A stretch of DNA of 61,735 nucleotides, the filler included, from Stramenopiles sp. TOSAG23-6 (Eukaryota): NCBI GenBank assembly GCA_900128565.1. It is 17 parts of 17 records of this genome, joined end to end, with 100 filler letters (N's around TTAATTAATTAA, not from the genome) between each part and the next. Parts side by side here need not be neighbours in the genome. Positions count along the whole stretch, not along the records: positions 21,950 to 25,496 come from LT637460.1; 16 more parts are not named here. The stretch is one strand, 5' to 3'. The notes under the pieces were generated by a model. The model was not told the origin of the DNA. It did no database searches and saw nothing but the letters and a program-made list of their open reading frames with translations. Below, piece by piece: positions 3,563-61,669 of the stretch. Numbering within the stretch: position 1 is the stretch's first letter; the number at the start of each line of letters is the position of its first letter. The translations under genes were made by a program, and so were the position numbers.

Positions 3563-3663
3563 ANNNNNNNNNNNNNNNNNNNNNNNNNNNNNNNNNNNNN
3601 NNNNNNNTTAATTAATTAANNNNNNNNNNNNNNNNNNNNNNNNNNNNNNNNNNNNNNNNNNNN
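3563..3663. other. Artificial contig linker (N-TTAATTAATTAA-N); the same linker recurs at about 7226, 10885, 14544, 18201, 21850, 25497, 29142, 32779, 36415, 40046, 43676, 47298, 50914, 54528 and 58136
   Basis: Identical 100-nt spacers carrying stops in all six frames, about every 3.6 kb; gene content is unrelated across them. Confidence 0.97.
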
Positions 3664-3746: not shown

Positions 3747-5238
3747 CATTGCTCTTCCTTCCTGCGTTAAAGTCAAATGCTGAGGACCTTACAGAATCTG
3801 CCATATACTCTGATTTAGAAAGAAACATTGTGATGAGATCGCAGTATATATTTTGGAAAAATATTATTTTTAGTAAAAATTTGTTAGGTACAAAATTTGG
3901 TACAAAAAAAAAATCGAAATTCAATTTTGAAAATTTTGGAAAAATATTATTTTTAGTAAAAATTTGTTAGGTACAAAATTTTCATAGTAAAAAAAATCGA
4001 AATTCAATTTTGAAAACGTACATCTAGACTCTCCAAATATATTTGATCCCATACCCCACAGACTTAATGCAGCACGATGTTCTAATGCTTCTCTCCATAA
4101 CTTTCTTACTGTACCTAGTTTGACTTTCGCTTTCGGATTTCCGTTTCCAAAGCACATCAATCCAGCCATTTGAATTTTACAAATTCCTTGAAAAAAACGA
4201 TCACCCAATTTATTCGCTTTCTGTGTAGCTTTCATATGTATTTTGGAAAAATATTTCAAAAAAAAAAACTAAAATTTGTTAGGTACAANNNNNNNNNNNN
4301 NNNNNNNNNNNNNNNNNNNNNNNNNNNNNNNNNNNNNNNNNNNNNNNNNNNNNNNNNNNNNNNNNNNNNNNNNNNNNNNNNNNNNNNNNNNNNNNNNNNN
4401 NNNNNNNNNNNNNNNNNNNNNNNNNNNNNNNNNNNNNNNNNNNNNNNNNNNNNNNNNNNNNNNNNNNNNNNNNNNNNNNNNNNNNNNNNNNNNNNNNNNN
4501 NNNNNNNNNNNNNNNNNNNNNNNNNNNNNNNNNNNNNNNNTACAAAATTTCGTATGAAAAAAATATTAAATTAGAAATTCATATAAACATACATAGATAA
4601 GACCTAGATGGATATTGGCTCCCTAATTTGGATAGATCTTGACGCCATAGTTTTCGAGTAGCCTTCAAACCAACTACAGCTACTGCATATTTAAGATCAT
4701 TTAGATCCATTCCTGCAAATGTTTTCGGATCTTCTATCATTTCATTATTCCAATTATCAGATTGTTCTTGATTATTCAAGTATACAGATAAACCCTCAAA
4801 CACTTGACGCATATCATTGCTTGTTTTTAAAACGTCCGTTAGGTTATTGCAATAGTATATCTTCACACTAGCTGCGGCAGCGTGAATAATACATTCATGC
4901 GGATTTAGCTCTTGTAGGGTAGAACCTTTCTTAGTCGCCATAATTTCAGCAGTGTCGTAAACACGTGGAATTACCATAAGAAGGTCACTTTGTAAAGCCA
5001 ATCGCTGATCACTTTTGCCTACCGCATCAAGATATAAAGCACAAGCACGGACCATACTATCGTCAGAAGCCAAGTCATCGACATAGCCCATGCGCATATA
5101 GTCAGGAAACTTTGACAAAAGACTGGTTGCTTTCTCTAAATTCTGGTATAAGGTGGTAAACAACTTTTCCGTAGGCCCAATATCAGACTTGGAGAGCGTT
5201 GCTAGTAGCTTCTCCGCATTACTTATCGACATTTTCAC
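3747..5238 (-). CDS. Multi-exon hypothetical protein (partial, interrupted by an N gap)
   Basis: ORF 4579-5238 plus exons at about 4022-4234 and 3747-3845, separated by family introns (TACAT|MKATQ; AGA T|GTACG...TATAT|AC). No family recognised. Confidence 0.5.
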
Positions 5239-5619: not shown

Positions 5620-7164
5620 ATGGAGAGCACGTCTTTGTTACCAAATAAGCGACCAAAGGAAGAAAGTCCTTCAGGGGTGCCTGAAATGCTCAGACGTGTT
5701 TCTGTCCATCGACTCCGTACCCAGCCGAGTGCACCGGAACACCAACACTCTAGAGAAGCTCGGCATCGTTCTAGAATCGTGCCACTTTCACCATCGACTC
5801 CATCTTCCGCAACTATCGACTTTCAAAAATGGAGTGTTAATGCAACAAAGGCAAAGATTATGGTATTACCAGCTGAAGTTCGTTTCAACCTTCGTTGTAT
5901 TGTCTTTGAGATGGACGAGTTAGCACTTGACCAATCAGCGTACTTTTCAGAAGAGATAAAGTGGCAGCAACGCCGCGATCTTGTAGTAGAATTACTATCA
6001 TCTGCATTAAATGATCACGATATGGAGCTCGATGCTGCTGTAAGTCGTGTTGTAGCACCAGTGTCATCAAGACGGTGGAAAGTATTCCGACAACGAACTC
6101 TTGATTCAAAGGTCTATAAGGCGTTTTTACAAATTGTGAGTGTACTATATTGTTTGTTATCATTTTATGAGGAGCCTTATTCTGGGAAATGGAGTCATAC
6201 AGAGATGAAGAATGCAGCTTGGACAGAATATACAGAGTATTTCATTCTTTGTATCTTTTTATTTCATGTACGTTTTCATCATTAGGGTTACTAGGGTTTA
6301 AAAAAAAAACATTTTGTAGTACATTTTGTACCTAACAAAAAATTAAATTTTCGAAATATTTTTTCACTGTACAGATCTTACTTGCCAAATCATACCAATA
6401 TAGTAAATGGGGAATTCTATTTTTGGTTTTATGGCTATTGTACGTGAGCGATGTGATCATGTATACAGTACATTCTTTAGGTTTGACTACATTTGATAAG
6501 AAACATGTACGTTTTCAAAATTGAATGTAAAATTTGTTTTATACGAAAATGTATACCTAACAAAAAAAAATTTCAAAAAAAAAAATATTTTTTCGCAATG
6601 TATATTTTTTCTTGGTGTAGATTATCAAGACCATTGCGCCCATTGTCTGTAGCGGCTTTATCACATACATATCGTAATTTATCTGGTTCTCTATTCCAAG
6701 TTTTACCTCATATAATGCCTGCAAATGTCATGATATGGATCATTATGCTTGCTTATGTACGTTTTCATTTTAATTTCAATTTTTTTTTTTTTGAAAATTT
6801 TGTACCTAACAATTTTTAGGTTTTTTTTTGAATATTTTTATATAATTCATGCTGTTTGGGGATTTCAAGCATTTTCTGATGATTTGACGTCGCAGTTATA
6901 TCAACTTGGAGGACCTGGTTTAGAAAATTTTAATACTGTGAGTCAATCATTTCTTGCAACATTTGTATTAATGAGTGAAGAGAACTATCCATATGTCATG
7001 TATCCAGCACAAATGGTAAAACCTGTCCATGCAGTATTTTATTTCACTTCATTTATAATATTGATGTTATTTCTAATGATACCATTATTATTAGCTATGA
7101 CATACTCTCAATATAAGAAGAATATGAAAAAACAGTATAAAGCAGAAATCATTCGTAAACACAT
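5620..7164 (+). CDS. Two-pore calcium channel (TPC family), 5' part, 4 exons
   Basis: LLSFYEEP, RLSRPLRPL (S4) and FLATFVLMSEENYPYVMYPA (pore) motifs. Introns 6268-6374 (GT-AG), 6507-6603 (GT-AT) and 6757-6850 (GT-AT) join the exons in frame. Confidence 0.8.
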
Positions 7165-7773: not shown

Positions 7774-8726
7774 ATGGAAATGTTATCTTCAGCGCAAGAT
7801 AATGGTGGGGTAGAGCCTCATTTAAAGTCTCATTCTGAAAAGTATGAGATATTTATTAGTAATCCAGACTTTAAATTCAATGCAGCGCACTTTATAGCTT
7901 ACAAAGGATATCGAGAACGTCTACATGGCCACAATTATCGTGTATCTGTTCGAGTTAAAGGGCGACTTGGTTCAGATGGATATGTTGTTGACTTTGGGGA
8001 TATTAAAAAGTCAACGAGACGAATCTGTAAAAGTTTAAACGAGGTATTTATTTGTCCTACTTTAAGTGATTGTTTGAATATAACTCATGTGAATAGTGTA
8101 GACGGTAAAGCTGGAAATATTGATATAGAATGTGAAGATGGTGCGCGATTTAGTTTCCCATTTGGTGATTGTGCCATGCTACCTATTGCCCATACTTCAT
8201 GCGAAGAGCTAGCGAAATATGTGTGTTTTCAGGATCAATTTTAAATTTATTTATTTTTCGTACGAAATTTTGTACCTAACAAAAAAAACAAAAAAAAAGA
8301 AAATATTTTCCCAAAATACATGTGTGTAATGTCATACTTGAAGATATGAAAATTTCCGAGTTACAATCCCGTGGAGTTTCTTCTTTCGAAGTCGGTGTCG
8401 CAGAGCGTAAGAATCAAATGGCACTATACGCTGTTGATATATTACCAAAAGTGTCTCAAAATAATTTGGTTCCACCTAATCTCAAAATGTCTGATTTGAA
8501 TCTGTCTGATAGAGAATCCAATCTCAAAATGTCTGTTTTGAATCAAGTTAGTCCTGGAATGATTACTACTATTTGTGATGAAAGTGATGATAAAAATATT
8601 GATGATGATAAAAATATTGATGATGATAAAAATATTGATGATGATAAAAATATTTATGATGATAAAAATATTGTTGTAAGCGATGGTAATGAATCAAACG
8701 ATACAAGTAGTAGCAGTGAAATATAG
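7774..8726 (+). CDS. 6-pyruvoyl-tetrahydropterin synthase (PTPS/QueD family), 2 exons
   Basis: FNAAHF, ERLHGHNY, GYVVDFGDIK and SCEELAKY motifs. Intron 8221-8321 (GT...CAT) joins ELAKY-VCNVIL. The tail has DDDKNI repeats. Confidence 0.85.
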
Positions 8727-8935: not shown

Positions 8936-10625
8936 CTATACCCATTCTTTTGGTTTACCTTGAAGTAAATCCAATGTTTTTTTTTCTGGACTATCCAACT
9001 CAGGAATATTTTTATACTCATAACGGACAGTAAGTGGAAGTGACATTAATACTGCTTCAATATCAACACCAGGTACATGTATTTTGAAAAAATATTTCAA
9101 AAAAAAATTTGAAAAAATTGTTAGGTACAAAATTTCGTACGAAAAAAAANAAAAAAATTCGNAANTNAAAAAAAAATAAAACATACAGCATATCCAAATT
9201 TCGTACCTCGATCATATACCAAGTTAAATTCAACATACCGACCATGCCTTAATGCTTGCCATTCTTTTTCTTTAGTAGTGTATGGCATATTCATTCGTTT
9301 TAATAAAATAGGCCAATAACAAGGAACAAAAGCTTTTACACAATCTTGTACAAACGATAAAGATGATGATTGTAGAGTTTGTTCATTTGGTGTAAGTAGT
9401 GTGAAACGATATTTTAAATTCGAAATTCGTTAGGTACAAAATTTCGTACGAAAAAAAAATAAATTTGAAATTCATGATGGAAACGTACAATTCTACTAGA
9501 ATCATCTCGATGTGAAAGAAACGAAAGTGCACTATTTACTTTTTCATTATTTGTATTATTATTTACTTTTTCATTATTTGTATTATTATTTGTTGTAACT
9601 GTATTCGTTTGTGATTTATATTGGTGAATATTCGTGAAATCGTCAAAAAATATTCCTCCAATGCCTCTCGCTTCTGCTCTTGCTTTGTTATAAAAATGTA
9701 TTTTGGAAAAATATTTCAAAAAAAATTCAAAAAAAATTGTTAGGTACAAAATTTTGTAAGAAAAAAAAAAAAAATTAAAACATACATATGTATCACAATC
9801 AGTTTTCATTATTGAGTATCGACTTTTAGTACTATTGTCATTTTTATCATGTTTATCACAGACATTTTTTAACGTTTTATGAAAATGTTTTGCATCGTCT
9901 TCAAATAAATAAATCGGAGTTAAATCAGTTCCTCCTCCAAACCACCAAGAAACAACTTCATCATCATCATCTGTTATTTCAAAATATCTATAATTAAAAT
10001 GTACAGTGGGTGCCATTGGATTGACTGGATGTAATATCCCACTTAACCCACACACCCACATTTGTAAATTAGGGTCACTTTCATGGCTAGGTTGTGTATT
10101 ACAAGTTTGCTCTTTCTTTTCTACCTTTTTATCCATTTTTCGCTTTTGAAGTTTTTCGCGCAACTGAGGATGATTTGCAGACATTTGTCGAATAATTGCT
10201 GGTGTAAGTGAGCGTGTCATGACTGTGAGACCAACTCCAGCTTTTTCAAAAACTCGACCATCTTGTAAAACTGCAGTTAACTTGAGAGCTCGTTTAGACG
10301 ATTTATCACGGCGCCATGTTACAATTTTCGTATCATCTGGAGCAGCAATAGACGCAGCTTTATCTTCTAATGAAGCAACACGATTGCATATATCGTGCTG
10401 TACCTGTACTAGTGTATTAATCATGGCTCTACGTGTGCTATTATTTCGAGATAAGTCGTTGCCTCCAAGAAAGTCTGACAATGTTGACGTATCGTCAGGG
10501 AGTGCAGGCGCACTACAACTACAATTGTCTGAATATTGACTTGTTGCATATATAGAGACGCCAGCAATAGCTGACGATGCAAATAACATACATCTTGAAG
10601 TCATCGCTGGTGTATTGTGTTTCAC
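8936..10625 (-). CDS. CPOX: Oxygen-dependent coproporphyrinogen III oxidase, 4 exons
   Basis: [61 protein letters not shown] and LMSLP motifs. Introns at 9696-9785, 9394-9488 and 9077-9186. Confidence 0.93.
9696..9785 (-). other. Representative family intron, GTATG...TACAT (GT-AT), 90 nt
   Basis: Removing exactly these 30 codons (VCF...KIH) restores the conserved HemF motif CDTY-FYNKAR.EARGIGG. No AG gives this junction. Confidence 0.8.
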
Positions 10626-13507: not shown

Positions 13508-13631
13508 TGTGCCGGAATTTAAAACTGAGAACGAGCAAAGTCTTCTGTAGTACACTTGCGACACACACATACACAAAAGATGCTGAATATACACACGCTT
13601 TTGCATCAAGTTCGACACGTGCTCATGAACG

Positions 13632-13643
13632 TACCCGGTAACA
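13632..13643. promoter_or_regulatory. Recurrent promoter 12-mer TACCCGGTAACA
   Basis: Identical copies at 13632-13643, 23296-23307 and 50315-50326 (reverse), each about 95-260 nt upstream of a start codon on a different contig. Confidence 0.55.
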
Positions 13644-18331: not shown

Positions 18332-18512
18332 ATGTTCAGAAAATCCATTAATACCCCACATCTTTAAAAGTCCAGCAACAAGGCCTTGTGAAACACCACT
18401 AGAATGAAGTGAAGTAGCTTGTGAATATTTTGTAAAAAATATATTTTTTTTTTTTCCGTAAAATGTTTTTTTTGTTAGGTACAAAATTTCGTACGAAAAA
18501 AAAAAAAAAAAC

Positions 18513-18543
<31 letters not shown>

Positions 18544-18794
18544 AAATGACTCAATGATCAAACACAAACGTACATGGCACAGACCAAGAAGCTAATCGAC
18601 CATCTGGTGATGTTGTTGAAGTACCTTCGCCTAAATGTTTTTCTGCTAATCGTAGAAACATATCCCTACGTTGACGGTAAAAATGCGTAATATTGACAAC
18701 ATGTATTTTTGTATAATATTTTTAAAAATATTTCAAATTTTTGTTAGGTACAAAATTTCGTATGAAAACTAAATAAATTTAAAATTTTCGAAAA

Positions 18795-18825
<31 letters not shown>

Positions 18826-20133
18826 CCTTAAAAGTTTTTTTTTTTTGGGTAAAAAATTTCGTACGAAAAAAAAAAAATAACAAAAAAATAAAAACATCGT
18901 ACATGTAATTGTAAACGGTCAATTAACTGTGATGGTCCAGTTGCCCAACCCACACGAATTCCTGAACTTAATACTTTTGAAAATGAATCAAATCGGATAA
19001 CTCTTTGATCGATATCCATTGAATAAAATGATTTCATGTTTCGTGTTTCATTAGGGTTAGGGTTTTCATTACTAGGGTTAGGGTTAAATTGTAGATAAAA
19101 ATATGGATCATCTTCTAAAATAATCAAATTTTCACGTCTTGCTATTTCATATATTTTCTCTCTACGTTGACTGGATAGAGTAGCTCCAGTTGGATTTGAA
19201 CCATTTGGTATTGTATATATATTTTGGAAAAATATTTCAAAAATTAAAAAAAAAAAATTTGTTAGGTACAAAATTTCGTATAAAAAAAATATTTTGGAAA
19301 AAAAAAATTGAAAAAAAAATAAAACATACATAAAACACGAGGTTTTCGTTTTGAAGGGTATAATACATTCCAATTTTTTAAAACCTCATCAAGAATATCA
19401 GGTTGGAGACCGTTCTGTTTGTTAGCTATTATATATATATAGATTTTCATACTTGAGAAAAAAAAAAAATTTAGTTGTAAAAAAAAATTTAAAAAAAAAT
19501 TAAAAAAAAATTTTGAAATTTTTTTGAAATATTGGAAAGGAAACGTACTTCATCTGTATCAATACCAATTTGATTGATACCATATGGTGTAAGAAAAGCA
19601 AGTGATCCAGAATATGTTGGTGTTTCAAGGAGTAAAGAATCCCCAGGATTAAGAAGCATTTCGAAAGATTTTGTCAGAACATCTTGAGACCCTGTTCCTA
19701 CTAAAATACTCGAATTCTTGGAATGTTCTGATGGATGATACGTAGACTGGATGATCTCAAGTTGTTCAATGAGAGAAGGTAAACCGAGGGTTGGACTATA
19801 TTGCAAAACTTCTTCTAGTGTTTTTCCTTCTAAAGTAAAAGAAGAAGAAGATGTTTTGTTACTATTTGTCTTTGATGATTTTTTTACCATTGTTGTATGA
19901 ATTTCAATCTGGTCAAAAGGAAAAGTCTCGCTATTCGGCATTCCTCCACCTAAAGAAATCATACCAGGAATTTTTAATAGTGGTTGTAAAGCACGAATTG
20001 CACTTGGTTTACGCTGAAGAGAAGCCTTTGAAAAAAAATGTTCATAGTCATGGAGAGTTGTTGTTGAAGCATACATACAACGTATTGAACGATTGATCTC
20101 CATGCATTTTTGTCTTGAACGCAAAATCATCAA
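18332..20133 (-). CDS. AADAT: Kynurenine/alpha-aminoadipate aminotransferase (PLP class I), partial, last two exons in swapped order
   Basis: MISLGGGMPN, LQYSPTLG, YTIPNGSNPTG, ILEDDPY and DSFSKVLSSGIRVGW motifs. Introns 19415-19548 (GT-AG) and 19217-19329 (GT-AT). Confidence 0.88.
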
Positions 20134-20494
20134 AGACTAATGTGACTATACTGTATTAGAAGGATAATAATAATTTATTTGTCTTGTGATTGCCAATAAA
20201 AAGTACTTGATATTTAAAACTTGATTCTTATTTTGTAGTTATGTGTTTCTTTTTTTGTATTATTATATTGAGATCTGAATCAAATCATCTGATCGATCCT
20301 GATTTGAGATTTGTCATCGGTCAAAAATGACGTATTAATAATATTATTATTTAAAGTACAAAAGGTACAAAAACTACTGGTCAACAATAATGGTCAACAA
20401 TACCTACCTTTCAATAGTACTGGAAAGGTATTACACTGAATAATACTATAAATAATATACAAATTGATGTACAAAGTATAATACTAAGCATATA

Positions 20495-21745: not shown

Positions 21746-21950
21746 GTATGTTTTTTTTTTTTTTCAACAAAAAAAAATCGATTTTTTTTTTTGGTTTTCG
21801 TACGAAATTTTGTACCTAACGAATTTTTTTTTGAAATATTTTTCCAAAANNNNNNNNNNNNNNNNNNNNNNNNNNNNNNNNNNNNNNNNNNNNTTAATTA
21901 ATTAANNNNNNNNNNNNNNNNNNNNNNNNNNNNNNNNNNNNNNNNNNNNT

Positions 21951-23195
21951 TCAAAAAAAAAAAATTTTTTGGTTAGGTACAAAATTTCGTATTAAAAAAA
22001 AAAATAAATAAAATTTGAAATAATAAGATACAGATTCTTCCATAACAGTACTATTTGGATCTGAACGATCATGACAACGTTTCCAATTTACAAATGCAAA
22101 CAATCGTTCAACTCCTTCCATTCGACCTCCTATAGCTGTCGTTGTTATTATCTGTTCATTATTTTGTTTTTTTTCTTCCGTATTATTTTCAGAATTTTTA
22201 CTTGGCTTTGCACCTTGTGCTATTGGTGTTCGTGATTTCATCATACGATTTAAATTATTTCCATATTTTAATTTTGTACTTAATTTTGTACTCAACATCT
22301 TTTTAGTCTCTGAATTCTTCATAATATCAGAAATCTTCCCTCCCCCCTGCAACCATTTCAACATAGCACTACTACAATCATTCATTCTAAGTTTTTCTGT
22401 CTCACAATTAGAATCATCTTTAATGTATGATTTATATTTATGTTTTTCTATATTTTGTTTTTGAATATCAAAGAATTCACGTTTTGCAATAGACCTATTG
22501 ATTCTCTCACTCCGGTCAGAATCGGACATTTTACTCTTCTGTCTAGCAGAAATGGAAGAGTCCATTTCATACAATGCTTTAATATACTCAATTTCAAATT
22601 TAAATGGACCTTCTTGACCTTCTCCACCTATAACAGTAAAACCGATCGTCTTTAAACGCGAGGAATCGACTTCGCGTCCAGTCGCTTTTTCATAACCAAA
22701 AGAAGTAAGTAATAAATTTTCAAACTGTAGTTCAACGTTATTCCATTTATTCACATCCTCTTTATCCATTTTAATGTATCCTTGGTGTAAGTCATCAGGG
22801 AAAAATGAAAGGGCAGTAATATTTAGCGTATATAAATTATTATCTGTTTTAATGCGCATCCCAAGTCCCTCATAATCTTCACAATCAGCCAAGTCACGAG
22901 GAATTTTGGTGCGTATTGCTGCGTAACCTTGGTTAGATCGTGTTCCATTTCGATCAAGTGAAATCACTCCTGAAAAGACACCACCACTATCATCAAGCCC
23001 AGGGGTAAAGTGTGCAGTTGATGACCCTCCAATAGTGGAATCAGTTGTCACGAGCCAATTATCTATCTGTGACTGCGCGTCAGTGCGAAAGTCAAAAAGC
23101 ATTTTGTCTGTTCTCGGAGGTGTTTGATTCCAACGCAAACTATCAATAGTTTGTCGGAATTGCCATCTAACTTCACTAATAGCCCTTTTCAACAT
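21951..23195 (-). CDS. NDUFAF1: Complex I assembly factor CIA30/NDUFAF1-like (3' end truncated)
   Basis: LFDF, WLVTTDSTIGGSS, GYAAIRT and EGPFKFEIEYIKA motifs. Confidence 0.8.
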   Translation of the reverse strand: MLKRAISEVRWQFRQTIDSLRWNQTPPRTDKMLFDFRTDAQSQIDNWLVTTDSTIGGSSTAHFTPGLDDSGGVFSGVISLDRNGTRSNQGYAAIRTKIPRDLADCEDYEGLGMRIKTDNNLYTLNITALSFFPDDLHQGYIKMDKEDVNKWNNVELQFENLLLTSFGYEKATGREVDSSRLKTIGFTVIGGEGQEGPFKFEIEYIKALYEMDSSISARQKSKMSDSDRSERINRSIAKREFFDIQKQNIEKHKYKSYIKDDSNCETEKLRMNDCSSAMLKWLQGGGKISDIMKNSETKKMLSTKLSTKLKYGNNLNRMMKSRTPIAQGAKPSKNSENNTEEKKQNNEQIITTTAIGGRMEGVERLFAFVNWKRCHDRSDPNSTVMEESVSYYFKFYLFFFLIRNFVPNQKIFFF

Positions 23196-23400
23196 GATTA
23201 GAATATGTCGGTACCAGTACTACTACTATCATGCTTTGTGCAAGTGCTACACGCATCCTTGACACGACAGAAACATATCGCGCGATCGATCCAATTACCC
23301 GGTAACATGCATGGCGATGCGATCATCCGAACGAAGAAAACGAAANTAAAAAANTTAAAAAANCACAACTGCGTCGTACTATCGAAAATATATATTCAGG

Positions 23401-24744
23401 ATGCCGCTCGAATCAACAATGATTTGTTTGGATAATTCCGAGTGGATGCGCAATGGTGATTATACACCATCCCGTCTAGGTGCCCAGCTTGATGCTGCTA
23501 ATGCTGTCAGCTCTCGACGAGTGAATCCTCCTTGTCATCCAGAGAATACTGTGGGTATCATGACGATAGCTGGTCGGACACCAGAAGTATTGTGTACTCC
23601 GACGCGCGATCAGACTTTATTATTAACTGCTACAGAATCTGTAGAAATTTCTGGGAAAGCTAGTGTTTATAATGCTGTTAAAGTTGCACTTCTCGCACTG
23701 AAACACCGCACAAATAAAAACGGTGGACAACGTGTTGCCTTGTTTGTTGGCAGTCCAGTGGACGACGATACGAAGAAACTAACAAAGGTTGGTAAAGAAT
23801 TGAAAAAAAATGGTGTTGCTATCGATATTATTCTCTTAGGTCCAACGGAAGGCAATAAAAAGGAAGAAAAGTTGGAGTCTTTAGTCAAAGCAGCTGATAA
23901 AGACGGAAATTCACATTTGATAGTTGTTCCTCCCGGACAGTTGCCCTCTGACGTTCTACGCTCTTCACATCTATGTGTTGAAGGTGGATCTATATCTGCA
24001 CCTGGTACTGATAATGCATCAGCAGGCGGCGATAATAATTTTGCAGAGTATGGTGGTTTTGATCCTAGTGTTGACCCAGAGATGGCACAGGTCATGAGAA
24101 TGTCTCTCTTGGAGGAGCGCGCACGGCAAGAAGCGACAGTACAAGAGGTAACGGCAGAAAGCGAAGTTGCAGCTACAGAAGAAGCTATAGCCCAATCATC
24201 TGTACCTGTAACACCTGCTCCTTCGACAGCATCTATTCCAACCTCTGCTGCTGCGTCAGATCAACAAGCGAGTGAAATGACCGACGATCAATTACGTACG
24301 TTTTCGTCATGAATTTTAATTTTTTTTTCGTACCAAATTTTGTACCTAACGAATTTCGAATTTTGAATATTTTTTCACAATACATTCTCCCAGGCTCTAG
24401 CTATGTCAATGGCTGCTGCTGCTGAAGAAGAAGCACAGGGGGAGAGTCAAGCTAATATAGATCAAGAAGATGTTGTAATTCAACAGGCTTTACGGTTATC
24501 TGAAGAAAGTCAACAAAATAATACAAGTGAGCCAACTGCAGCATCTAACCCTAACCCTCCACTACCTCCTCAACGAACTGGTGAAACTACTCCTTATTTT
24601 GACCCAGCATTTGTTCAAGGTTTACTACAAGGATTACCTGGTGTCGATCCAAATGATCCACGAATCCAGGCAGCAATGCAGACATTCAATCAAAACAACG
24701 ATAAAAGTGATAAAAATGATTCTGATAAGACAAAGGAGAAATAG
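23401..24744 (+). CDS. PSMD4: 26S proteasome ubiquitin receptor RPN10, 2 exons
   Basis: MPLESTMICLDNSEWMRNGDYTPSR vWA start, DPSVDPEMAQVMRMSL and LPGVDPNDP motifs. Intron 24296-24385 (GT-AT) gives the UIM DDQLLSQALAMS. Confidence 0.95.
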
Positions 24745-24930
24745 AAAGAAAATAAGAGCAAATTCGAAATTCAAAAAATTTAATAAAATTAGAATGTCAA
24801 AAAAAGAACTTTCCTGGAAAAGTCAATTTTTTCATCTTCTTCACTCTTATGTCCAGAATACACTTTTTAGAGTGTTACCTTCTTTACAAAGAATTAGTTT
24901 ACCCGTCGGATATAATCAGGCATTGAAACA

Positions 24931-25496
24931 ATGTCAACGTTGTCCGACGACCTCATATCGAACGACAGTGATGGATTTGTTGTCATTAATAAAACTTCGA
25001 AAAACGAGCCATGCGATATACTCCGAGGAATGTCACCCGTTCAGTATTTTGAGCATGGGCTTAGCGAAAAAGACACCGCGGCAGCAATAAATTCCCATAA
25101 GATGGCTATGTTAGGAATATTGAATCAACTCCCGTGTGCCGAGCTAACCGCAGAGAACAAAACAAATCATCATCGACTTTTATTGCAAGTGCTAAGTCAA
25201 CTTCCATGTAATTTCAAAACACCTGAAGCTGAAAATTTTCATAAAAATGCAATGCTTGGAGTTTTAAGTCAACTTCCTTGTGAGCAAATGAACGAAACAA
25301 ACAAAGCAGAGCATCATCAACAGCTATTACAAGTTCTGAGTCAACTTCCATGTAATTTCAAAACACCTGAAGCAGAAAATGCTCATAAAAAAGCGATGCT
25401 TGGAGTTTTAAGTCAACTTCCATGTGAGCAAATGAACGAAACAAACAAAGCAGAGCATCATCGACAGCTCTTACAAGTGCTAAGTCAACTCCCATG
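24931..25496 (+). CDS. Tandem-repeat protein (about 23-aa H..LLQVLSQLPC units), partial
   Basis: Six units in a 138-bp dimer periodicity; runs into the contig end. Confidence 0.55.
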
Positions 25497-25596
25497 NNNN
25501 NNNNNNNNNNNNNNNNNNNNNNNNNNNNNNNNNNNNNNNNTTAATTAATTAANNNNNNNNNNNNNNNNNNNNNNNNNNNNNNNNNNNNNNNNNNNN

Positions 25597-27691
25597 AGCT
25601 AAAGCCAAAGCAGAAGCTTTAGCAGCTAAACTTGCTGCAGAAGAAGCTGAACGAATTAAAAAAGAAGCAGAAGCGACTGCTGTATGGGAAGAAACACCAA
25701 TTATTGCTAAAAAGTATCAGTCGGATACGGTGGATGAAACAGCAGCTGAAATTGCTGCATATACCCAGCCAAACAATCGTCCTTTATTTGTTCTGGCTCT
25801 CTCAAAAAAACGTTCTGAATACGGATGTCCATATAAATTTTCAAATTATGAAGCTGACACAACTGTCACAGAATTCCGCAGTAAAGTAAACCCAAACTTT
25901 GAACTAAATATGTGCGAAGTCGATTGGGGGTTGCAGGCGCCTGGGCCTTCGGCGTTTTCGTATATGTCTGATAAAAAAGTTCAAACAACTTCCAATGCCA
26001 AGACCAACAGAAGTATTCAGTATGAATCGAATAAATCTAAAGATACAGAGAAAGAGGCTACCATAGAATCGCCTGGATTCATTGATTTCTTACAGCGAGC
26101 TACGTTTGCCTGTGAGTATGTGCTCCAACAGAACGAAACTGTTAATTTGTATAAAGAAGAGCTAGGTGCAATATCAGATACTGCAATATCTCATTTAGTA
26201 TATTCCAAAGGTCGATGTATTTCCAGTGTTGATTGGCATCCAGTAGTAAAAGGTGTTGTTTTGGTTACGTGTACTAATAATGATACTTTTGATGAACGAA
26301 CTAACAAAGCTGGTCGTTCATCTGTGTCGTATAATCTAATTTGGAATTTCCGAGATTTACTACATCCACAAAATGTTCTTGAAACTCCACATGAAACGTT
26401 TAAATGTCTATTTAATCCAATAAATCCAGATATCATTGTTGGGGGGACCATAACCGGTCAAGTCGTTATGTGGAACGTGGCATCTCTGAAAAAAGAAGAA
26501 AAGACAAAACATGATGATGATGGAGATCCAAAACCTTTAATGTATGAAATGTTGTCTTCGATTGATTATAGTCATTCACGTGCAGTAAGCGATCTTTGTT
26601 GGATGCCAGATTGCACAGAAGTAGATTCGAAAGGTAATATATCCGTCAACCCAGATGGGAAAATATATCAATTTATAACAGTTTCTACAGATGGACAACT
26701 TCTCATTTGGGATCTGAGACACAAAAAGGCAATACGAAAACCGGGAAAGAGATCTCGAAAAGCAGAACAAGAAGCTGAGCTTTGGGTACCTATTTTTGGT
26801 GTTAAGATGACCGATACTACAGGAACTGGTGGTATGAATACATACAAATTTACACTAAAAGGCCCGGGAAATTGCGGTGCTAACTTTTATTGTGGAACTA
26901 GTAATGGAGAAATAGTTGCTGGGAATTGGAATTTCACACCAGGTGCTTCAAAAAAGACTTCAGAAGAAGAGAATGGTTCTGGTGGTGGTAATGATGGTCA
27001 ATTAAAATACATAAAATGGAGTGCTAGAGATCATTTTAGGCCCTGTGTAGCTTTGGAACGTTCGCCATTTTTTGGTGATATTATTTTGAGCGTGGGTGAC
27101 TGGGGATTTAATATCTGGAAGGAAGGTGAAAAAGAGCCTATATATACATCACCGAATGCTGATAGTTATGTTACATCGGGAAAATGGAGCCCGACAAGGG
27201 CTGGAGTCATTCTTATTGCAAAACGTTCTGGGGACATTGATGCTTGGGATTTGACATATTCTTCACACAGACCATTGCAAGTAATTCATGTTGGTACACT
27301 TCCAGTAACATCTATTAACTTTTGGCATCATGGTGGAAAAGATGGTTCTGGAAAACAATTACTTGCTGCAGGTGATATTAGTGGTGCGATGCACGTCATA
27401 GAAATGCCGCGAAATCTCAGAACTCGGTCTTCACATGCTAATGAAGCAGCACTAATGCAAGCATATCTCGATCGTGAAACAAAACAACTGGCATATACAC
27501 GCATGAGAAGAACGGAAAGAGAATACGAAAAACAAAAACTGGATGAAGCAGCAGCAGCAGCTGAGAATGTTGATAATAGCAAAGAAATTAATATGGCGAA
27601 GGAGCAAGCCAAAGAAGATACTGAAGCTGAAAAGGAATACAGAGCTATTGAAGCAAAATTCCGTCAAATGTTTGGTTTACAGGATAATTAA
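25597..27691 (+). CDS. Axonemal dynein intermediate chain, WD40 (WDR63/DNAI3-like), 5' truncated
   Basis: LQQNETVNLY, FNPINPDIIVGGTITGQVVMW, LERSPFF..IILSVGDW and WSPTRAGV motifs. Confidence 0.82.
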
Positions 27692-29328: not shown

Positions 29329-32270
29329 ATTGGTCGACCTACTCTACGAAGTTTTATAGAAGAAGGCATCAATGGTAGGATTGATGCTACATCTAAAACA
29401 TCGCCACATTCACTTAATATTGACATACCCTGTTCTATATTTTTATTCTTCTGAAAACAATAATGAATCAATGAAAGCCATAAATGTATTTTGTAAAAAT
29501 ATTTCAAAAAAAAAATCGTTAGGTACAAAATTTCGTATGAAAAAAGAAACGAATTTGAAAAAAAATAAAACATTCATGTTTACTCATTTGTGAATCATCC
29601 ACAACATTTTTAATGACTTCTTTTGCTTCATGGATAAGATTATTTTGTAACGCTACATCCATTGCGTCATTATATAAATGCAACATGGTATAAATATATA
29701 TACAACATCTTGTAAGGTGTAAACGTTGACATGTATTGTGAAAAAATAAAAAAAACAAGAATGTTTTTCTTAGGTACGAAATTGTGTACGAAAAAAAACA
29801 ATTTGAAAATCATAATGTAAACGTACATATCCGTAACGCGCTATTTAGATTAAGTATAACACCAATATCATCATCTTTTCGTTCCGCTAAAAACCTCAAA
29901 ACTTCAGTTTCAGATTGAGTTTTAGCTAAAAGACGGAAAAAGTAGTTAAATACAAAACTATCACGACACGAAATCTTTCTGAAATATTTGCGATGTTTGT
30001 TTTGTACTACATCTAAATGTTTTGTACAAGATTTCGTACTTGAAGATTTATTCTTTACATTTGATTTTTCTATTGTATCATTAAGTTTATGATTCGTTTT
30101 CATTCTCTGTGATATATTTGATGGTCGTGACGTAATTGGAGCACTTAAAACATTTGTACCTGTAACATATTCCAAATACTTAAGTACAGAAATTGTACCA
30201 TTATTATTACTATTATCATTCGTTTTCACTTCATATTGAACTAATGATGGCATTAACTGACGAGGGATTAAAAAGTCACACGTACCAGAAATCCATACTT
30301 GAATCGTTTCTTTAGGTATGTGTTTCATGAATTCAAACGAAAATTCGTAATGTAAAGCTGATGCTTCATGTTGTGGAATTTTTTGTAAGATACGTAATGC
30401 AGTCAGAAATTGTTTCTGTTGAGAATGAATGTAAAGAACACGTTGCCACAAACCTGTTTCTTGTGCAAAATATGTTAATTCATTTATCTGCCCAAAATTA
30501 CTCAGAGCAGCTAAAGTGGTTCGAGAGTCTAAATCACATTTATATTGAAGTAAAAAATCCCTCAAAATGTTTACGTAGGACTGTAAACATTTTTGTGATT
30601 TTGTAATTCTGTCTGTCAGATATTTTCTGTGTTTTTCACTTTTTCGATACTTTTGATGTTTTAATTGTTTTTGAGGTATGGAGCCAATGACACATTTTGC
30701 TATATGCACTTTATAAATAAGCAAATGACACATCCATGTTAAAATAACTGTTTTTTGGCTCCTCATGTATTGTGAAATTTTTTTTTTTGTAAAATTTGTT
30801 AGGTACGAAATTTCGTACGAAAAAAAAATAAATTTGAAATTGAAAAAAAAAAAACATACATGTTTCGGTGAATATTCTTTGAAAGTATTAGACGTAGATA
30901 TTCAAGTAGTGATTCAATTGGGGAAGTAACCATGTCTAATTTAATATCAGTGTTTGTACCCAAATCTGTTGCAATTGGTAATATTGAAAAATATTTCAAA
31001 ATTACATCTTCAAATGAACACTTTGATATAAAATACTTTTTTGCAGCTTCGGAATAGTTTTTGTGACGAAACAATGCATTCGCATACTGTATATTCACAA
31101 TATTTCGTTGTTTGTCGTTTTCACAATAAAATAATGATTTTTTGAAACCAACAAAATTTATTTTATTCGGGTTGTTTTCGTTACTGAGTGATTTACATTG
31201 TTGTATTGCATTTTGCAAGTAATCAGACCAAAGATTTCTATCTTCTCCAGTTATAGAAATTAACCAAATATTATGACTAGATATAATCCATTTCTCATTA
31301 GATACGAAATCATGAATGAGAAAACTGTTCATCTTATTTGACAATCCTGTCAAATTGTTTGAGACAAGATTTCGTGTCTTATCCCAAGACCATTTTTTTT
31401 CTAGAGGAAAGATTTTCTGGTACAAGATAGATTTCGTTATTATACTAATTATACGAAAGCGCAAACTTACTATACAATTATCTTGTTTTTGTAGTCTTGT
31501 GTCATTTTCATATTTCGTGTTATTTTCATATTTCATGTTATTTTCACTTATATCGATAATATCTGTACAATACACATGATATTGTGATACACTTATATCA
31601 TGAGAAAATTTCATTGAATCTTTATCAACTATATTCATTTTGATAAATCCTGGATCGTTTATAATTGATTGACTCTTCGTTACTACCGAGGTCGATGACG
31701 TCATCAAACCATCTGTTGATTTTGTTTTTCTTTTTTTATCTAATGAACTGTTACAAAAAACACAACCATTACCAGTTAAAATACCAAACCCATCAGAAAC
31801 ACCACCATCTGGTGAAGCTATGGATAGTGTTGGTTTCTCCATTCGAATACCTGCTGGAATATCCGCCCAGAAAATATCTCCAATATTCTGAGTTGTAGCA
31901 TCTCGCTTGTATTCATTCATTACATTTATATTATTTAGTAGGTCCTGCTCAATATTATCATTATTATCCTCCTCAATATTATCATTATTATCCTCCTCAA
32001 TATTATCATTATTATCATTCCTCTTGAATTCATCAAAATTATTTTTGTAATATTTAAATAATATCTCAAAATTTGGACCTCCAAAAAATTCATAGACACG
32101 AATTATTTTCTGTTTTGCGTTTCTGCCTGTAGCTAATATAAACCAAGTCGTAGTTTCCATTATTTGGTCAGAATCTGTACGACAAAAAGAAGCATTTGTT
32201 TCAGATTTGTTTTCCGAATTTGATAAACTTTGTTCTTGTGTGGAAACTGACGTCCATTTACTTTTAAGAT
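29329..32270 (-). CDS. VPS18: VPS18/PEP3-like HOPS/CORVET subunit, multi-exon fragment
   Basis: EDRNLW..YL, FEDVILKY, LIPRQLMPSL, ALRIC..CIYIY..LYNDAMDVAL, LWLSLI and ILPLMP motifs. Introns at 29731-29826, 29484-29575 and about 30765-30859. Confidence 0.75.
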
Positions 32271-35900: not shown

Positions 35901-36324
35901 TTATTGATTTCCCCACTTGGCAAAAAGAAATATCCTGGTTGACACTTTCCTGGAAGACAATAAGATCCTTTACCGGGGTCATCGAAACATTTTTGTGCAT
36001 CATTTTGGCAACCTACAACTTCATCACATTTGCTACAAGAATGTACTGTGAAAATATATTTTTGTAAAAAAAAACGTTAGGTACAAATTTGAGTACGAAA
36101 AAAATATAAATTTGAAATGAATTGTGAAAATGTACATAGTCTGTGGATCCAGTTCCATCACATGTACCGTATCTCCTCTCATTGTTTGCACAAGATGGAT
36201 GGCATTTTCTACATTGACCATTATGAAGATAAAAACCTTCATTACATTGTTCAACACAATGAATATTAGTTGCAACAGAACACCGAATATTTTCTTCTTT
36301 ACAATTCTTCAACGACATATATGC
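32930..36324 (-). CDS. Large cysteine-rich (furin-like/TNFR-like CxxC repeat) surface or secreted protein, fragment
   Basis: More than 1000 aa of CxxC..GYY..C repeats, with family introns at both ends. Confidence 0.75.
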
Positions 36325-52657: not shown

Positions 52658-54404
52658 ATGAACTCGACTGTACAGACACAATCGAAAATACGTGACTCCA
52701 ATTGCGCCTTTTCGCACGTTGATTTTAATGTTATTGCAAATCTAGGTTTCGGCGAAACAATTCGGGTATGTGGACATGTTCCTGCGTTAGGTTGTTGGGT
52801 ACCAAATGATGGTGTCCCCCTTGTGACAACTCCCGAAAGCCATCCAATGTGGTACACAGCTCGCCCGGTGGCTCTCTCCCGTGGTGAAGTTGTAAAATAT
52901 AGGTACGCATTATTTGTAGCTGGTGAATTTGATCGATGGGAAGATTCCGAAAACTCAAGAGTTCGTGAATTGCGTCTCACAGAAGATATGCAAGTTTGGT
53001 GTGTTCAAGACCGTGTTGATATTAAGAATCGAGCTCGAGTGAATATTCCTGAATCTGCTCTGCATCAACAATTACTAAAGAAAAGACTGTCACCCAGCAC
53101 AAAGTCATTCTTATCACCGCTTATACAACAGCAACGTAAAGCAATAGAAACATCTCAGTCTTCTGTCACTGCACCTGGTGAACCAGCTGAACATCAGTCT
53201 GTACATTCAAACCTTTCAAATACTTCGCTAATGAACCCTAACCCTAATAAGCTCACATTGCCTACATCGATTAATTCTGAAACTGATAGTTCTGTGTATT
53301 CTGGCCCAGTGATTGATGGAGAAAGACTACAACGTTCAAGTATATATTCGACATCTAATCCACTTCAAGCACCACCATCGTTCAGCACAGCAACCGGATT
53401 ACACAGAAATGTAGCAAATAGTGATGAAGATATTAGTATTGGTCGAAATGATGGCATTTTAATTATTGTTCTTTATCTACCAGTACACATTGTTCGTGAA
53501 CCGGGTACTAAAGAGTGGAGCGTAACTTGGGATGGGAACAGCTTACTTGCAAGAAAAAAAACAACAATTGCAGACAAATTGAGATTTCTTTGGATTGGAA
53601 TGCCAAAACTTCCTCCTGATACAAAGTACACACATCGTGAACGAATGGAAATTACAGTGGCGTTAAGTAAACTTCGTTGTATTCCTGTGTTTGCAAAACT
53701 GTCCACCAGAAAACTTCATGAAGAATATTGCCGTAACACTTTACATGTATGTCAAATGTTTTTTTCATTTTCCATGGATTGATTTTTCATACGAAATTTT
53801 GTACCTAACGATTTTTTTTGAATGTAATTTTTTTTTGGTTTTTTTTTTGGTTTTTTTTTGTTTTTTTTTGTTTTTTTTTTAGTTTTCGTACGAAATTTTG
53901 TACCTAACAATGTTTTTTTATGATTTCATGTTTTTTCACAATATATGATTTATTTCATAATGTCATTGATGTATACGCTAAATTACCAACTCGCTGGTGT
54001 CGCAGAAAAGATCAAAATAATGACTGGCAAGGATACACTGCGTTAAATCAAATTTTTGCCAACAAAATATCTGAAACGTATGATGAAGGTGATTTTATAT
54101 GGATACAGGATATTCACTTTTTGGTGTTACCTTCTTTTGTTGCTCGTAAACTTCCAAAATCGAATATCGGTTTATATTTATGTACGTTTTCATTTCAATT
54201 TCAAAATTTTTTTTTTATAGTAAATTTTGTACCTAACGAATTTAAGTTTTTTTTTTGAAATATTTTTTCATAATCCAGATTCGCCGTTTCCATCATCAGA
54301 AATATTTCGAACTCTTTCAGTAAGGGATAAACTTTTACGTGGTATGCTCAACGCGGATCATTTGGGATTTCCTTTATTTGAATACACAAGGCATTTCTTA
54401 GCTT
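52658..54404 (+). CDS. CBM20-fused trehalose-6-phosphate synthase (GT20), 5' part
   Basis: FGETIRVCGHVPALGCW (CBM20), WIQDIHFLVLPSF and SPFPSSEIFR..LLRGMLNADHLGF motifs. Introns 53747-53946 (GT-AT) and 54182-54278 (GT-AG). Confidence 0.88.
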
Positions 54405-54627: not shown

Positions 54628-55587
54628 AAAAAAAAAAAAAAAACACAAAAAAAAAAATATGTTTCACAATATATGAATTACTATTTCACTTGATTGAAGA
54701 GAGATGGATAAAGAAAAAAAAATCATATTGGTGGTCATATCTTAATACCTTACCACTACCTCATCAGCAGCAAAATCCTTTATATTTCAATAAAGACGAA
54801 ATTCGTGGATTGAAAGGATCGACGATGGAAATCGATGTAATTGAGTATCAAAATTCTGTTTCGACAATGTTTACCTTTATCAAAAAACGTGTTTTTGATA
54901 AATTTCCTGAAAATTTTCCTGCAAAATATTTCAACTTGGATACGTATAAATGGGCGACAGCAATACTCAATAGTCAAAGTGTATGTTGTTTTTTTTTCGT
55001 ACGAAATTTTGTACCTAACAAAATATTTTTTTTTTTTTTTTTGGATAAATTTTTCTTAGGTTTAGGTACAAAATTTTTTTACCAAAAAAAAAAAAAAAAA
55101 AAAAAAATTTTTTTTTTTTTTTTTTTTTTTTGGTAAAAAAATTTTGTACCTAAACCTAAGAAAAATTTATCCAAAAAAAAAAAAAAAAATATTTTGTTAG
55201 GTACAAAATTTCGTACGAAAAAAAAACAACATACACTTTGACTATTGAGTATTGCTGTCGCCCATTTATACGTATCCAAGTTGAAATATTTTGCAGGAAA
55301 ATTTTCAGGAAATTTATCAAAAACACGTTTTTTGATAAAGGTAAACATTGTCGAAACAGAATTTTGATACTCAATTACATCGATTTCCATCGTCGATCCT
55401 TTCAATCCACGAATTTCGTCTTTATTGAAATATAAAGGATTTTGCTGCTGATGAGGTAGTGGTAAGGTATTAAGATATGACCACCAATATGATTTTTTTT
55501 TCTTTATCCATCTCTCTTCAATCAAGTGAAATAGTAATTCATATATTGTGAAACATATTTTTTTTTTTGTGTTTTTTTTTTTTTTTT
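54628..55587. repeat. Perfect 960-bp palindrome duplicating a SET-protein exon (likely amplification/assembly fold-back)
   Basis: ORFs 54690-55136 (+) and 55079-55525 (-) are identical; the centre is a polyA/polyT run at about 55107. Confidence 0.9.
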
Positions 55588-55903
55588 ACAAAGATTCAAA
55601 AAAAATCGTTAGGTACAACATTTACTATGAAAAAAAAAAATTGAAAAAAAATTAAAAACATTTAAAAAAATAAGGGTTAGGGTTAGGGTTGATGAAAAAG
55701 GAACATACATGATGAGAATCACCTTGTGGAAATTCAACTCTCAATTTTTTCAAAGCTGGTGCAATTAAATTACTGTTTTGAAGTGCTGAAAATGACGTCA
55801 TATACATTCTTTGAGGAAGAACTAAATAATTTTTACCTATACTGATATTTGATGTACTAATCACCGAAATTAAAAGTCCGCCTTTTTGAACTGCCGTTTT
55901 TAC
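55233..55903 (-). CDS. SET-domain (Rubisco-LSMT/SETD3-like) methyltransferase exons
   Basis: LVLPQRMYMT, GDSHH-ELLFHLIEER, SYWWSYLNTLP, PLYF..EI..LKGS and YKWA..ILNS motifs. Confidence 0.72.
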
Positions 55904-56033
55904 ATGTATTGTGAAAAAAACACGAATTTTACAAAAAAAAAAAATCGTTAGGTACAAAATTTCGTACGAAAAAAAAAAATTCGATTTTTTTTTTTTTTCG
56001 GTAAAAAAAAAAAAAAAAATAAATAAACCATAC

Positions 56034-57096
56034 AGCTCCTTCAACGCCCTCAATCGAATCAACCACATTTTTTATATTTTTTATATTTTGTATATTTTTA
56101 TGATTTTGATAATTTTCTGAACACTCATCATTATAATGGATTTCGTGATAATTATTCAAAGTATGTGTTTGAATTGTATCAAAACAGGTTTGTTCAAATG
56201 AAGATTTTATACATGTTGAAAAATCTGTATTAAAATTTGTTAAATGATTATTCATTCCGTTGGGAGAACACGAAAAACGTGGATATATACTAGCTAAACT
56301 TGGCATTGATAAAAATTTCTGAAATGTTGCACGTAATAAAATGGTACGAATTTTGATACCTACATATAATGTGAAAAAAAAAAAAAAAATTTACATTTTA
56401 CATTTTTTGTTAGGTACAAAATTTCGTACGAAAAATAAAAATAAATTTGAAATTGACAAAAAAAACAAAAAAAACAAAAAATACCCGAGCTGACATAAAT
56501 TCTTGATGAGACTGAGCAATGGAAGCAATGAGTTGGGTAAATAAAAGAGCTAGAGAGCATTGCCATCCTGTTGATATAGTTCGATGTTGACAACCATTCA
56601 CTTCTTGACAATATTCATCTCCGCCAGCAAGAATCCATTCTACTAAATTTTTGATGAGAAATGGCGACAAGAAATGACAAGAGATGCTAATTACGTATAA
56701 AAACGCTGCTACAATAAGTTCGCTAGCAAACATTCGAAAAAAGATCGATATAAGTCTAGGTTGTTTTGTTTGATATTGGTTATTTCGGTTATGTATGTGT
56801 ATGTTTGGTTCATTTTGTTCATTTGATTCATCTCCCTCTTGTGTAGGGTTGTTTGTGTGTATAGTTTGAATGAAGAATGATGAACTCTCTGTGTTTTTTT
56901 CATCATTAATTGTTTGAAATTCTCTTGTTAATTCTTGATTAAATCTATAATGTAAATGTTGTACTTTATCTGATTCTGGGATATTATATATGTCTGAAAA
57001 ATCAAGGGGTCTTGAAAAAGCAGCATTTGTTAATGAAGACGTCCATAAGAAGAAAAGTTTATCGAAAAAAGAGGAATGTTCAAAACCTTGTGACAT
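56034..57096 (-). CDS. ABCC/MRP-type ABC transporter, N-terminal exons
   Basis: SFFDKLFFLW, PLDFSDIYNIPESD and LSPFLIKNLV motifs. Intron 56364-56484 (GT-AT) gives SAR-VGIKIRTIL...FQKFL. Confidence 0.8.
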
Positions 57097-61190: not shown

Positions 61191-61669
61191 CTTACAAAAT
61201 TTTTTCCCAAAAAAAAAAAAAAAAAAAAAATGAAAAAAAAAAATATTTTTTCACAATATATAAAACATATACAAAACGATGTAATGAAATTAAAGGATCT
61301 TGCGATATTGGAAAAGATTGGCGAGTACAGAATGGTGATGGTAAAGATACACGAAATATTGAAATAGGTCTCCAACGCAAATGTACGTTTTTTTCTCTTT
61401 CATTTCGAATTTATTTTTTTTTCATACGAAAATTTGTACCTAACAAAAATTTAAAATTTTTTTGAAATATTTTTTCATAATACTTGTACAAAAAATGAAT
61501 ATATGTTCAATGATGCTTATTTTTATAATGCATATCATCACCCACCGTCTTACTTGTTTTATAACTATTATGAATCAAACCCTAACCCTTATAGGCATGT
61601 ACGTTTTTTACCATTTTTTTTTTTATACCAAATTTTGTACTTGAGATTTTTTTTGAATTTTTTTCACCA

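Follow-up and report, generated by a model that had tools for sequence, protein, structure and literature searches.

How is the 3' end of an intron recognised when it lacks the AG dinucleotide that is, to our knowledge, close to universal at this position? The question is raised by a short segment (24329-24385) of a 61,735-base stretch assembled from the genome of Stramenopiles sp. TOSAG23-6 (assembly GCA_900128565.1), which we refer to as the window. This segment comprises the 3' two-thirds of one intron, located in the gene for the 26S proteasome subunit RPN10, and the intron belongs to a family whose members are mostly 90-110 nucleotides (nt) long. In solved spliceosome structures the terminal AG is recognised through its interaction with the first base of the intron and with the branch adenosine. 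A preliminary description of the segment proposed instead that the acceptor is chosen by its distance from a core made of a hairpin and a branch-point motif, or by the structure of that core, along with a CACAAT/CCAAAAT motif, and not by scanning for AG. Our analysis confirms that both the motif and the AT acceptor exist, and that they are unusual. On balance we consider it probable that they define an introner-like family of U2-type introns, in which the acceptor is set by a 3' box ending in AU.

The RPN10 gene provides the direct evidence for the AT acceptor. Its protein product finds its best matches among stramenopile RPN10 proteins with the PF13519 domain (oomycetes, ochrophytes, Cafeteria and a EukProt protein at 68% identity). 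Placement of RNA contigs on the N-free interval 23364-25496 yielded a single spliced junction: a 391-nt contig from a poly(A) metatranscriptome (run X8, record 23) matches 24231-24295 and 24386-24711, differing at two letters, and skips exactly 90 nt with GT..AT ends. The matches flanking the junction span 65 and 326 nt, and no alternative placement of the ends fits. RNA from this gene has therefore been joined by the excision of 24296-24385 with GT..AT ends. The spliced reading frame, DDQL|LSQALAMSM, matches DEQLLNQALAMSM across the junction in a 68% identical homologue (P0002). A CAG preceded by a pyrimidine lies 8 nt downstream of the AT at 24385; it is out of frame and is not used in the RNA contig.

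The intron is one of many in the window that share a common layout. The conserved core at 24330-24345 on the plus strand, GTACCAAATTTTGTAC, has a single mismatch to a consensus 16-mer, and is directly followed by CTAAC at 24346-24350. At three or fewer mismatches this consensus is matched 83 times on both strands against 1.11 expected, a number that none of 100 shuffles equals, and these matches collapse to 46 loci in the 59,553 non-N bases of the window (2,182 of its 61,735 bases are N). CTAAC lies directly 3' of the core in 27 of these loci as oriented and in three more on the opposite strand, while four loci run into N. By the general branch-site rule CURAY/UACUAAC, the branch point would be expected at CUAAC. 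Thirteen complete introns can be aligned end to end with a mean column identity of 66% (alignment A2), giving a consensus that starts with an exon ending in AT, followed by the donor GTAYGTTTT, a T-rich spacer, TTTTTC, GTACGAAATTTTGTAC and CTAAC, and continues with an A/T spacer, AAATAT, a T-run and CA(C/A)AATAYAT, up to the next exon. The spacers are about 57% identical in pairwise comparisons. Pairing within the core was assessed on 35 copies, 32 of them distinct, with 34 taken from the window and one from an external contig (L002). The copy at 9124 was excluded from a second alignment (A1) for its Ns and retained in the frame test described below. The columns of the loop and the 3' arm (AAATTTTG), which played no part in the selection of copies, reach at least 90% conservation, whereas those of the 5' arm vary from 53% to 94%.

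Copies are also encountered beyond the window. L002, an unrelated metagenome contig, has the same layout and an AT end; it was the only genuine copy among three loci recovered when metagenome contigs were scanned with purine/pyrimidine wildcards in both stem arms. Scans with a 17-mer returned 6 loci in viral contigs and 31 in prokaryotic genome contigs, none of them in an intron context, and these are chance matches. Rfam gave no matches in the window. The RPN10 contig is present in two small DNA runs from 2015 and in several seawater metagenomes (DNA), and parts of it in seawater metatranscriptomes; we regard the source as a marine stramenopile. Most of the RNA contigs placed on it (292 in X6 and 234 in X8) stack on 24300-24371 and then continue into unrelated flanks, and the summed contig depth over this part of the intron reaches approximately 20,000-26,000 in X6 and X8, against single digits on the exons. 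The two metatranscriptomes contain RNA that retains the intron, or carried-over DNA, from a very large number of loci.

The position of the acceptor in other genes was examined by a frame test, applied where an intron has a usable donor and is flanked by long open reading frames (ORFs), with the cut placed at the conserved 3' motif. In all 17 introns with a clear donor the ORFs join when the cut is made directly after the conserved 10-mer, which finishes A-Y-A-T/G, and not when it is moved by one base in either direction; the chance of such an outcome is about 1 in 3 per intron. Four of four further introns with unusual donors (GAATGT, GTATGG, GTACGA and GTATTT) close likewise, which brings the introns whose frame closes at the end of the motif to 21 of 21, with CA(C/A)AATAYAT at the closing cut. 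The donor begins with GT in 20 of them and with GA in one, its consensus being GTAYGTTTT. Sequence conservation, both in the frame-test rows and in A2, ends exactly at the base of the inferred cut. At 29570-29575 on the minus strand GAATGT replaces GTATGT at the donor and the frame still closes with an AT end, which makes this a possible GA..AT intron.

With five more introns identified by the motif only, the set with a recognisable 3' end comprises 26 introns, whose last two bases are AT in 21, TT in three and AG in two. Excluded from these counts were 32294 and 42176, where the acceptor could not be fixed, 8908, 40206, 57439 and 59084, which are degenerate or not part of the family, and the copies cut by Ns (4540, 7211, 21816, 21976, 32879, 43643, 58119, 58259 and 3692). 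Since 24 of the 26 introns end in AT or TT, six of the 26 skip an AG that lies 3' of CTAAC and before the intron end in use, and RPN10 ignores its downstream CAG, there is support for the view that a search for AG does not determine the acceptor. In this respect, and in placing a conserved 3' motif at the intron end (21/21), the preliminary description was correct, but its choice of structure and distance as selectors was not borne out. As in U2-type introns generally, removal occurs at precise ends and the GU donor has an extension complementary to U1 and U6; the terminal AG of that class is absent from 24 of the 26.

The distance argument was that the acceptor sits a near-fixed 35-43 nt from the core. 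We counted the nucleotides between CTAAC and the intron end in the 26 introns, and obtained 33, 34, 35, 35, 35, 37, 38, 38, 40, 41, 41, 41, 42, 42, 42, 42, 43, 43, 43, 43, 44, 45, 46, 48, 50 and 67 (median 42, standard deviation 6.5). The distances therefore range from 33 to 50 with one at 67, and 18 of the 26 are within 35-43, so that a near-fixed spacing is not confirmed. The ten counts originally given are right but selected: eight of them (35, 38, 38, 40, 41, 41, 42 and 43) are reproduced by frame, that of 21552 (43) is based on the motif only, and that of 42216 (36) is ambiguous, as the reading frame is kept both by an AT end at 42216 and by an AG end at 42219. The variation in spacing is located in the homopolymer spacer. 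In all 14 copies that contain it, the AAATAT box starts exactly 21 nt before the intron end, and columns 103-123 of A2 are without insertions or deletions in 12 of the 13 sequences; the sole exact register is local to this 3' box. The 5' half is similarly regular, with 49-64 nt from donor to CTAAC in 11 of 17 introns, and hence the spacing looks like a consequence of the layout that the elements share, without any ruler of the acceptor's own.

The intron at 19415-19548 had been offered as a contrast to the family, without an intact core and with CTAAC only 6 nt before a normal CAG acceptor, and we confirm this. Read on the minus strand (19548-19415), this 134-nt GT..AG intron ends in CTAACAAACAG, with a degenerate core-like site roughly 55 nt upstream. 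When its two exons are translated separately, both match one aminotransferase chain, 6s8w_A. Exon 1 is aligned up to query residue 192 of 196 (chain residue 227), which extrapolates to 231 over the 4 unaligned residues, and exon 2, in a weak match (E 0.065), is aligned from chain residue 233 at its second residue. The exons are accordingly taken to abut, and thus the same organism appears to splice GT..AG introns as well.

Under the reading that we favour, these introns would be removed by U2-type splicing, with the donor and CUAAC acting as usual. A strong yeast-like donor, GUAYGUUUU, in most cases preceded by an exon that ends in AU, is followed by a U-rich spacer and by the conserved block AAAUUUUGUAC-CUAAC, which would serve as an extended branch-site region. 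Beyond a variable second spacer comes the 21-nt 3' box (AAUAU, a U-run and CA(C/A)AAUAYAU), the last base of which is the last base of the intron. We infer that it is this box, and not an AG, a hairpin or a measured distance, that fixes the 3' splice site, with AU as the last two bases in most copies and with UU or AG tolerated. The near-palindromic appearance of the core would derive from a 5' arm, GUACGA, that repeats the donor sequence, and would not be kept as a stem. The family as a whole would go back to one element that was amplified, after which selection would have acted on the three signal blocks.

A different role for the core is envisaged if the branch site is displayed by the stem GUACGA/UUGUAC, and the acceptor is set 35-43 nt downstream with help from the CACAAT/CCAAAAT motif. 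We regard this as unlikely. The consensus core alone does fold into a 6-bp stem (-4.4 kcal/mol, z -3.1), which also appears in some whole-intron folds, and the 18 distances in the proposed range are as it would predict. However, none of the six proposed pairs displays compensatory changes among the 35 copies (32 distinct), the paired cells amount to 78.1% against 78.7% in shuffles, with 471 of 500 shuffles scoring at least as high, and RNAalifold predicted no consensus pairing for the 13 full introns. Of the 32 distinct copies, 15 have a broken outer G-C pair. The RPN10 copy, which is spliced, forms only a 4-bp stem at -2.1 kcal/mol, and copies with ATACGA or ATAGTA arms reach -1.2 and -0.1 kcal/mol and still pass the frame test. 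The pairs are thus not maintained by compensatory change as those of a conserved RNA hairpin are, and this absence of covariation is the very outcome that the preliminary description had named beforehand as refuting its proposal; the stem is not supported as a selected structure. Moreover, the distances vary from 33 to 67 while the register of the 3' box is exact. Given the conserved loop and 3' arm and the variable 5' arm, we interpret the block as a branch-site region of extended length, which looks palindromic because its 5' arm resembles the donor (GTACG). Pairing between the intron ends, as in the nonconventional introns of euglenids and diplonemids, would join AU|GUAY with UACAU| and make the core the tip of a long interrupted hairpin. 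The ends are indeed partly reverse-complementary, and are paired (AUGUAY with RUACAU) in the minimum free energy structure of about 6 of 10 whole-intron folds (8276, 9743, 30802, 36080, 19265 and 6806). Yet the z scores of whole introns are weak (+0.33 to -1.94) and there is no consensus structure, the spliced RPN10 intron is without the end helix (z +0.33), and variant intron ends (AG, TT) and exon ends (AC, CT, TT) are not compensated. The family also has a strong U1-type donor and CUAAC, unlike nonconventional introns as characterised in PMC12621601, and such pairing strikes us as very improbable.

Scarcely any weight can be given to the idea that no splicing takes place and that the joined form of RPN10 is a DNA variant lacking the element, or an artefact of assembly or amplification. 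While it is true that the RNA evidence consists of contigs and not reads, all from RNA runs, and that the assembly has chimeras, the joined form was recovered from a poly(A) RNA library, keeps the reading frame and agrees with the homologue, and 21 of 21 introns close their frames at the same position of the motif. Readings of the element as a simple repeat or as a segment excised at the DNA level were likewise rejected. With respect to origin, introns that resemble each other along their whole length, although their genes and positions are unrelated, are best accounted for if a single element was amplified, in the manner of introners. Such similarity, a trait of introners, is seen in the 66% identity of the 13 introns of A2, at the 46 loci and in L002. 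Introns of unrelated genes have stretches in common that are not splicing signals (for example CATCATGAATTTCAAATTTA, which follows the donor, and GAATTTCGAATTT, which follows CTAAC), three introns have internal duplications or two cores (3846-4021, 53747-53946 and 18701-18902), and the copy number is high, all of which argues for amplification. Contig ends are often inside family introns, where a repeat present in many copies would be expected to interrupt the assembly. Alternatively, these could be old introns that were never amplified and became alike by convergence, under a spliceosome demanding long signals and U-rich spacers. Conservation that is concentrated in three blocks, low-complexity spacers, the absence of subfamily structure and the lack of a clear target-site duplication (TSD) or terminal inverted repeat (TIR) would all fit convergence. 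The recurrence of the non-signal stretches, the duplicated and two-core introns and the breaks of the assembly at introns count against it, as does the GT..AG intron with a different 3' layout that works in the same genome, and we consider convergence doubtful. The degree of divergence of the spacers, together with the absence of subfamily linkage and of a clear TIR or TSD, speaks against a very recent burst, and the uneven conservation suggests that selection acted on the three blocks after amplification.

Several points weigh against our favoured interpretation. The RNA proof concerns a single intron and comes from one contig, and 20 of the 21 frame-tested introns rest on frame and motif, which are blind to ends 3 nt apart. 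CTAAC is a presumed branch site, recognised as a motif, and the invariance of TAC-CTAAC in A1 is partly due to the criteria by which copies were selected. As regards amplification, the terminal inverted repeats are short (GTA..TTTT against AAAATAC) and coincide in part with the signals for splicing. The exon ends in AT in 14 of 17 cases and the intron in 12 of 17, with no co-variation in the informative cases, and a 2-nt duplication is thus unsupported. No subfamily linkage was found between the 5' and 3' halves of the introns (Mantel r -0.04, p 0.59, n 13). Lastly, the assembly is fragmentary and includes at least one inverted chimera (54989-55226). As a separate observation, an 8-nt direct repeat resembling a TSD, ATGTGTGT, occurs at 8213-8226 and 8314-8327, around the intron at 8221-8321 with the donor GTGTGT; it is the only long example.

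The family combines features of several known intron types. Introns of saccharomycete yeasts have a near-invariant GUAUGU and UACUAAC and a YAG 3' end; the family is like them in its long strong donor and branch consensus and in a branch site tens of nucleotides from the 3' end, and differs from them in the AU or UU end within a fixed 21-nt box and in the branch block GUACCUAAC. In Trichomonas and Giardia the branch site and the 3' splice site are fused in one motif, with the branch adenosine 6-8 nt from the AG. The conserved 3' motif with CA repeats in a fixed acceptor register is similar, and the contrast intron resembles their layout, whereas in the family CTAAC is 33-67 nt from an end that is not AG. 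U12-type introns are defined by 5' RTATCCTT and the branch motif TCCTTAAC located 10-15 nt from the 3' end, and the long conserved donor and branch motif bring their AT-AC form to mind. In 9 of 17 introns the exon and the intron both end in AT, so that AT..AC ends could formally be written. We rejected this assignment, as the donor is GTAYGTTTT and not RTATCCTT, CTAAC is 33-67 nt from the end, and the RPN10 RNA is unambiguously GT..AT.

Among amplified introns, the introners of Micromonas, Aureococcus, dinoflagellates and fungi are (PMC11282704, PMC12130899) short alignable introns with their own splice signals; they are mostly from marine protists, with one stramenopile case already known. 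The family shares with them the presence of many short introns at unrelated positions that can be aligned over their whole length and carry splice signals. It differs in that no clear TIR or TSD is seen, no mobility or autonomous partner has been shown, and conservation is in the signal blocks. It also differs in its GT..AT ends, the survey curation in PMC12130899 having accepted AG and AC 3' ends. Introns of Fritillaria, Amoebophrya, euglenids and diplonemids (PMC12621601, PMC11282704) likewise have abundant non-GT-AG ends, a presumed derivation from small transposons and some potential for end pairing. In the family, by contrast, the strong donor and branch motif are canonical, only the last base is deviant and end pairing is unsupported. 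Our literature searches, which included passages of PMC5778133, PMC5269757 and 10.64898/2026.04.17.719054, turned up no account of stereotyped GT..AT introns in stramenopiles; the supplements of these papers may hold intron statistics.

The window as a whole is AT-rich, with a G+C content of 27-39%, and is interrupted about every 3.63 kb by a linker in which TTAATTAATTAA has 44 N on either side (e.g. 3564-3663 and 7226-7325). It is therefore a chain of contigs of approximately 3.6 kb and not a single locus; the contigs are ordered by length, and genes flanking a linker are not genomic neighbours. About 40 short introns were counted in 59.5 kb, or approximately one per 1.4 kb. The contigs in 10985-18200 and 43776-53700 have no copy of the intron family and a somewhat higher G+C content (0.34-0.39), and could represent intron-poor genes or foreign DNA in the assembly. 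A perfect inverted duplication at 54989-55226, with the same intron start and flanking exon on both strands, is probably a chimera of amplification or assembly seeded at the palindromic core, and similar convergent pairs of cores are seen at 8835/8908, 56344/56414 and 57391/57439. A telomere-like 12-mer, AACCCTAACCCT, occurs 27 times in the window at one mismatch or less, against 0.18 expected (40377-41387, 60433-60635, 19053-19085, 24547-24558, 43186-43402, 53234, 55673-55690 and 61578), and also in the external contig L002. In ORFs, that of RPN10 included, it encodes N-P-N-P, and it is located in introns as well; its appearance is that of another short element dispersed in the genome, or of an insertion signature. 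The features discussed above are collected in Table 1.

Table 1. Positions of the RPN10 gene parts, the contrast intron and the frame-tested introns of the family along the window
Feature	Position	Strand	Basis or remark
RPN10 (26S proteasome subunit) exon 1	23401..24295	+	ORF; ends ...DDQL plus one base of the next codon
RPN10 intron, 90 nt, GT..AT	24296..24385	+	RNA contig junction and homologue; encloses 24329-24385
5' splice site GTACGTTTT	24296..24304	+	family consensus GTAYGTTTT; alignment A2
Near-palindromic core GTACCAAATTTTGTAC	24330..24345	+	3' half and loop conserved, 5' arm variable
CTAAC, presumed branch-site motif	24346..24350	+	adjoins core in most copies
21-nt 3' box: (G/A)AATAT, T-run, CA(C/A)AATAYAT, ends at acceptor	24365..24385	+	alignment A2
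RPN10 exon 2, LSQALAMSM... to stop codon	24386..24744	+	ORF, RNA contig, homologue
Contrast intron, GT..AG, 134 nt	19415..19548	-	family-like GTACGT donor, no intact core
Family intron, GT..AT, ~83-nt internal duplication (two cores)	3846..4021	-	frame test
Family intron, GT..AG, 38 nt after CTAAC	6268..6374	+	frame test
Family intron, GT..AT, 42 nt after CTAAC	6507..6603	+	frame test
Family intron, GT..AT, 40 nt after CTAAC, internal AG skipped	6757..6850	+	frame test
Family intron, GTGTGT donor, AT end, 8-nt direct repeat ATGTGTGT over both junctions	8221..8321	+	frame test
Family intron, GT..AT	9077..9186	-	frame test
Family intron, GT..TT	9394..9488	-	frame test
Family intron, GT..AT	9696..9785	-	frame test
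Family intron, GT..TT, 50 nt after CTAAC	18424..18573	-	frame test
Family intron, two cores, AT end	18701..18902	-	frame test
Family intron, GT..AT	19217..19329	-	frame test
Family intron, GAATGT donor (GA), AT end	29484..29575	-	frame test
Family intron, GT..AT, 33 nt after CTAAC	30765..30859	-	frame test
Family intron, GTACAT donor, AT end	36041..36135	-	frame test
Family intron, two cores, GT..AT	53747..53946	+	frame test
Family intron, GT..AG in same register as AT ends, earlier AG skipped	54182..54278	+	frame test
Family intron, GT..AT, outlier: 67 nt after CTAAC	55541..55708	-	frame test
Family intron, GTATGG donor, AT end	55904..56033	-	frame test
Family intron, AT end	56364..56484	-	frame test
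Family intron, GT..TT	61383..61485	+	frame test

If AU is the end of most introns in this organism, with a donor and a branch motif that are canonical, they would constitute a natural experiment on how the site of the second step of splicing is chosen, and would add a case of an amplified intron family that carries its own unusual 3' signal. Single-cell genomes of uncultured marine stramenopiles have been annotated with few and long introns, 0.36-0.56 per gene, according to PMC5269757. Should the organism belong to such a lineage, standard predictors would miss its short introns, and would truncate or frameshift many of its proteins. It is also possible, although we would place this somewhat short of an even chance, that in this abundant lineage of oceanic stramenopiles the default of the major spliceosome has moved from AG to A-U, with U-U tolerated, as set by the 21-nt box and not by the last two bases, and that nearly all introns of the genome derive from one amplified element which introduced the signal. 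If true, there may be tens of thousands of such introns genome-wide, and gene models built on GT-AG would be wrong throughout.

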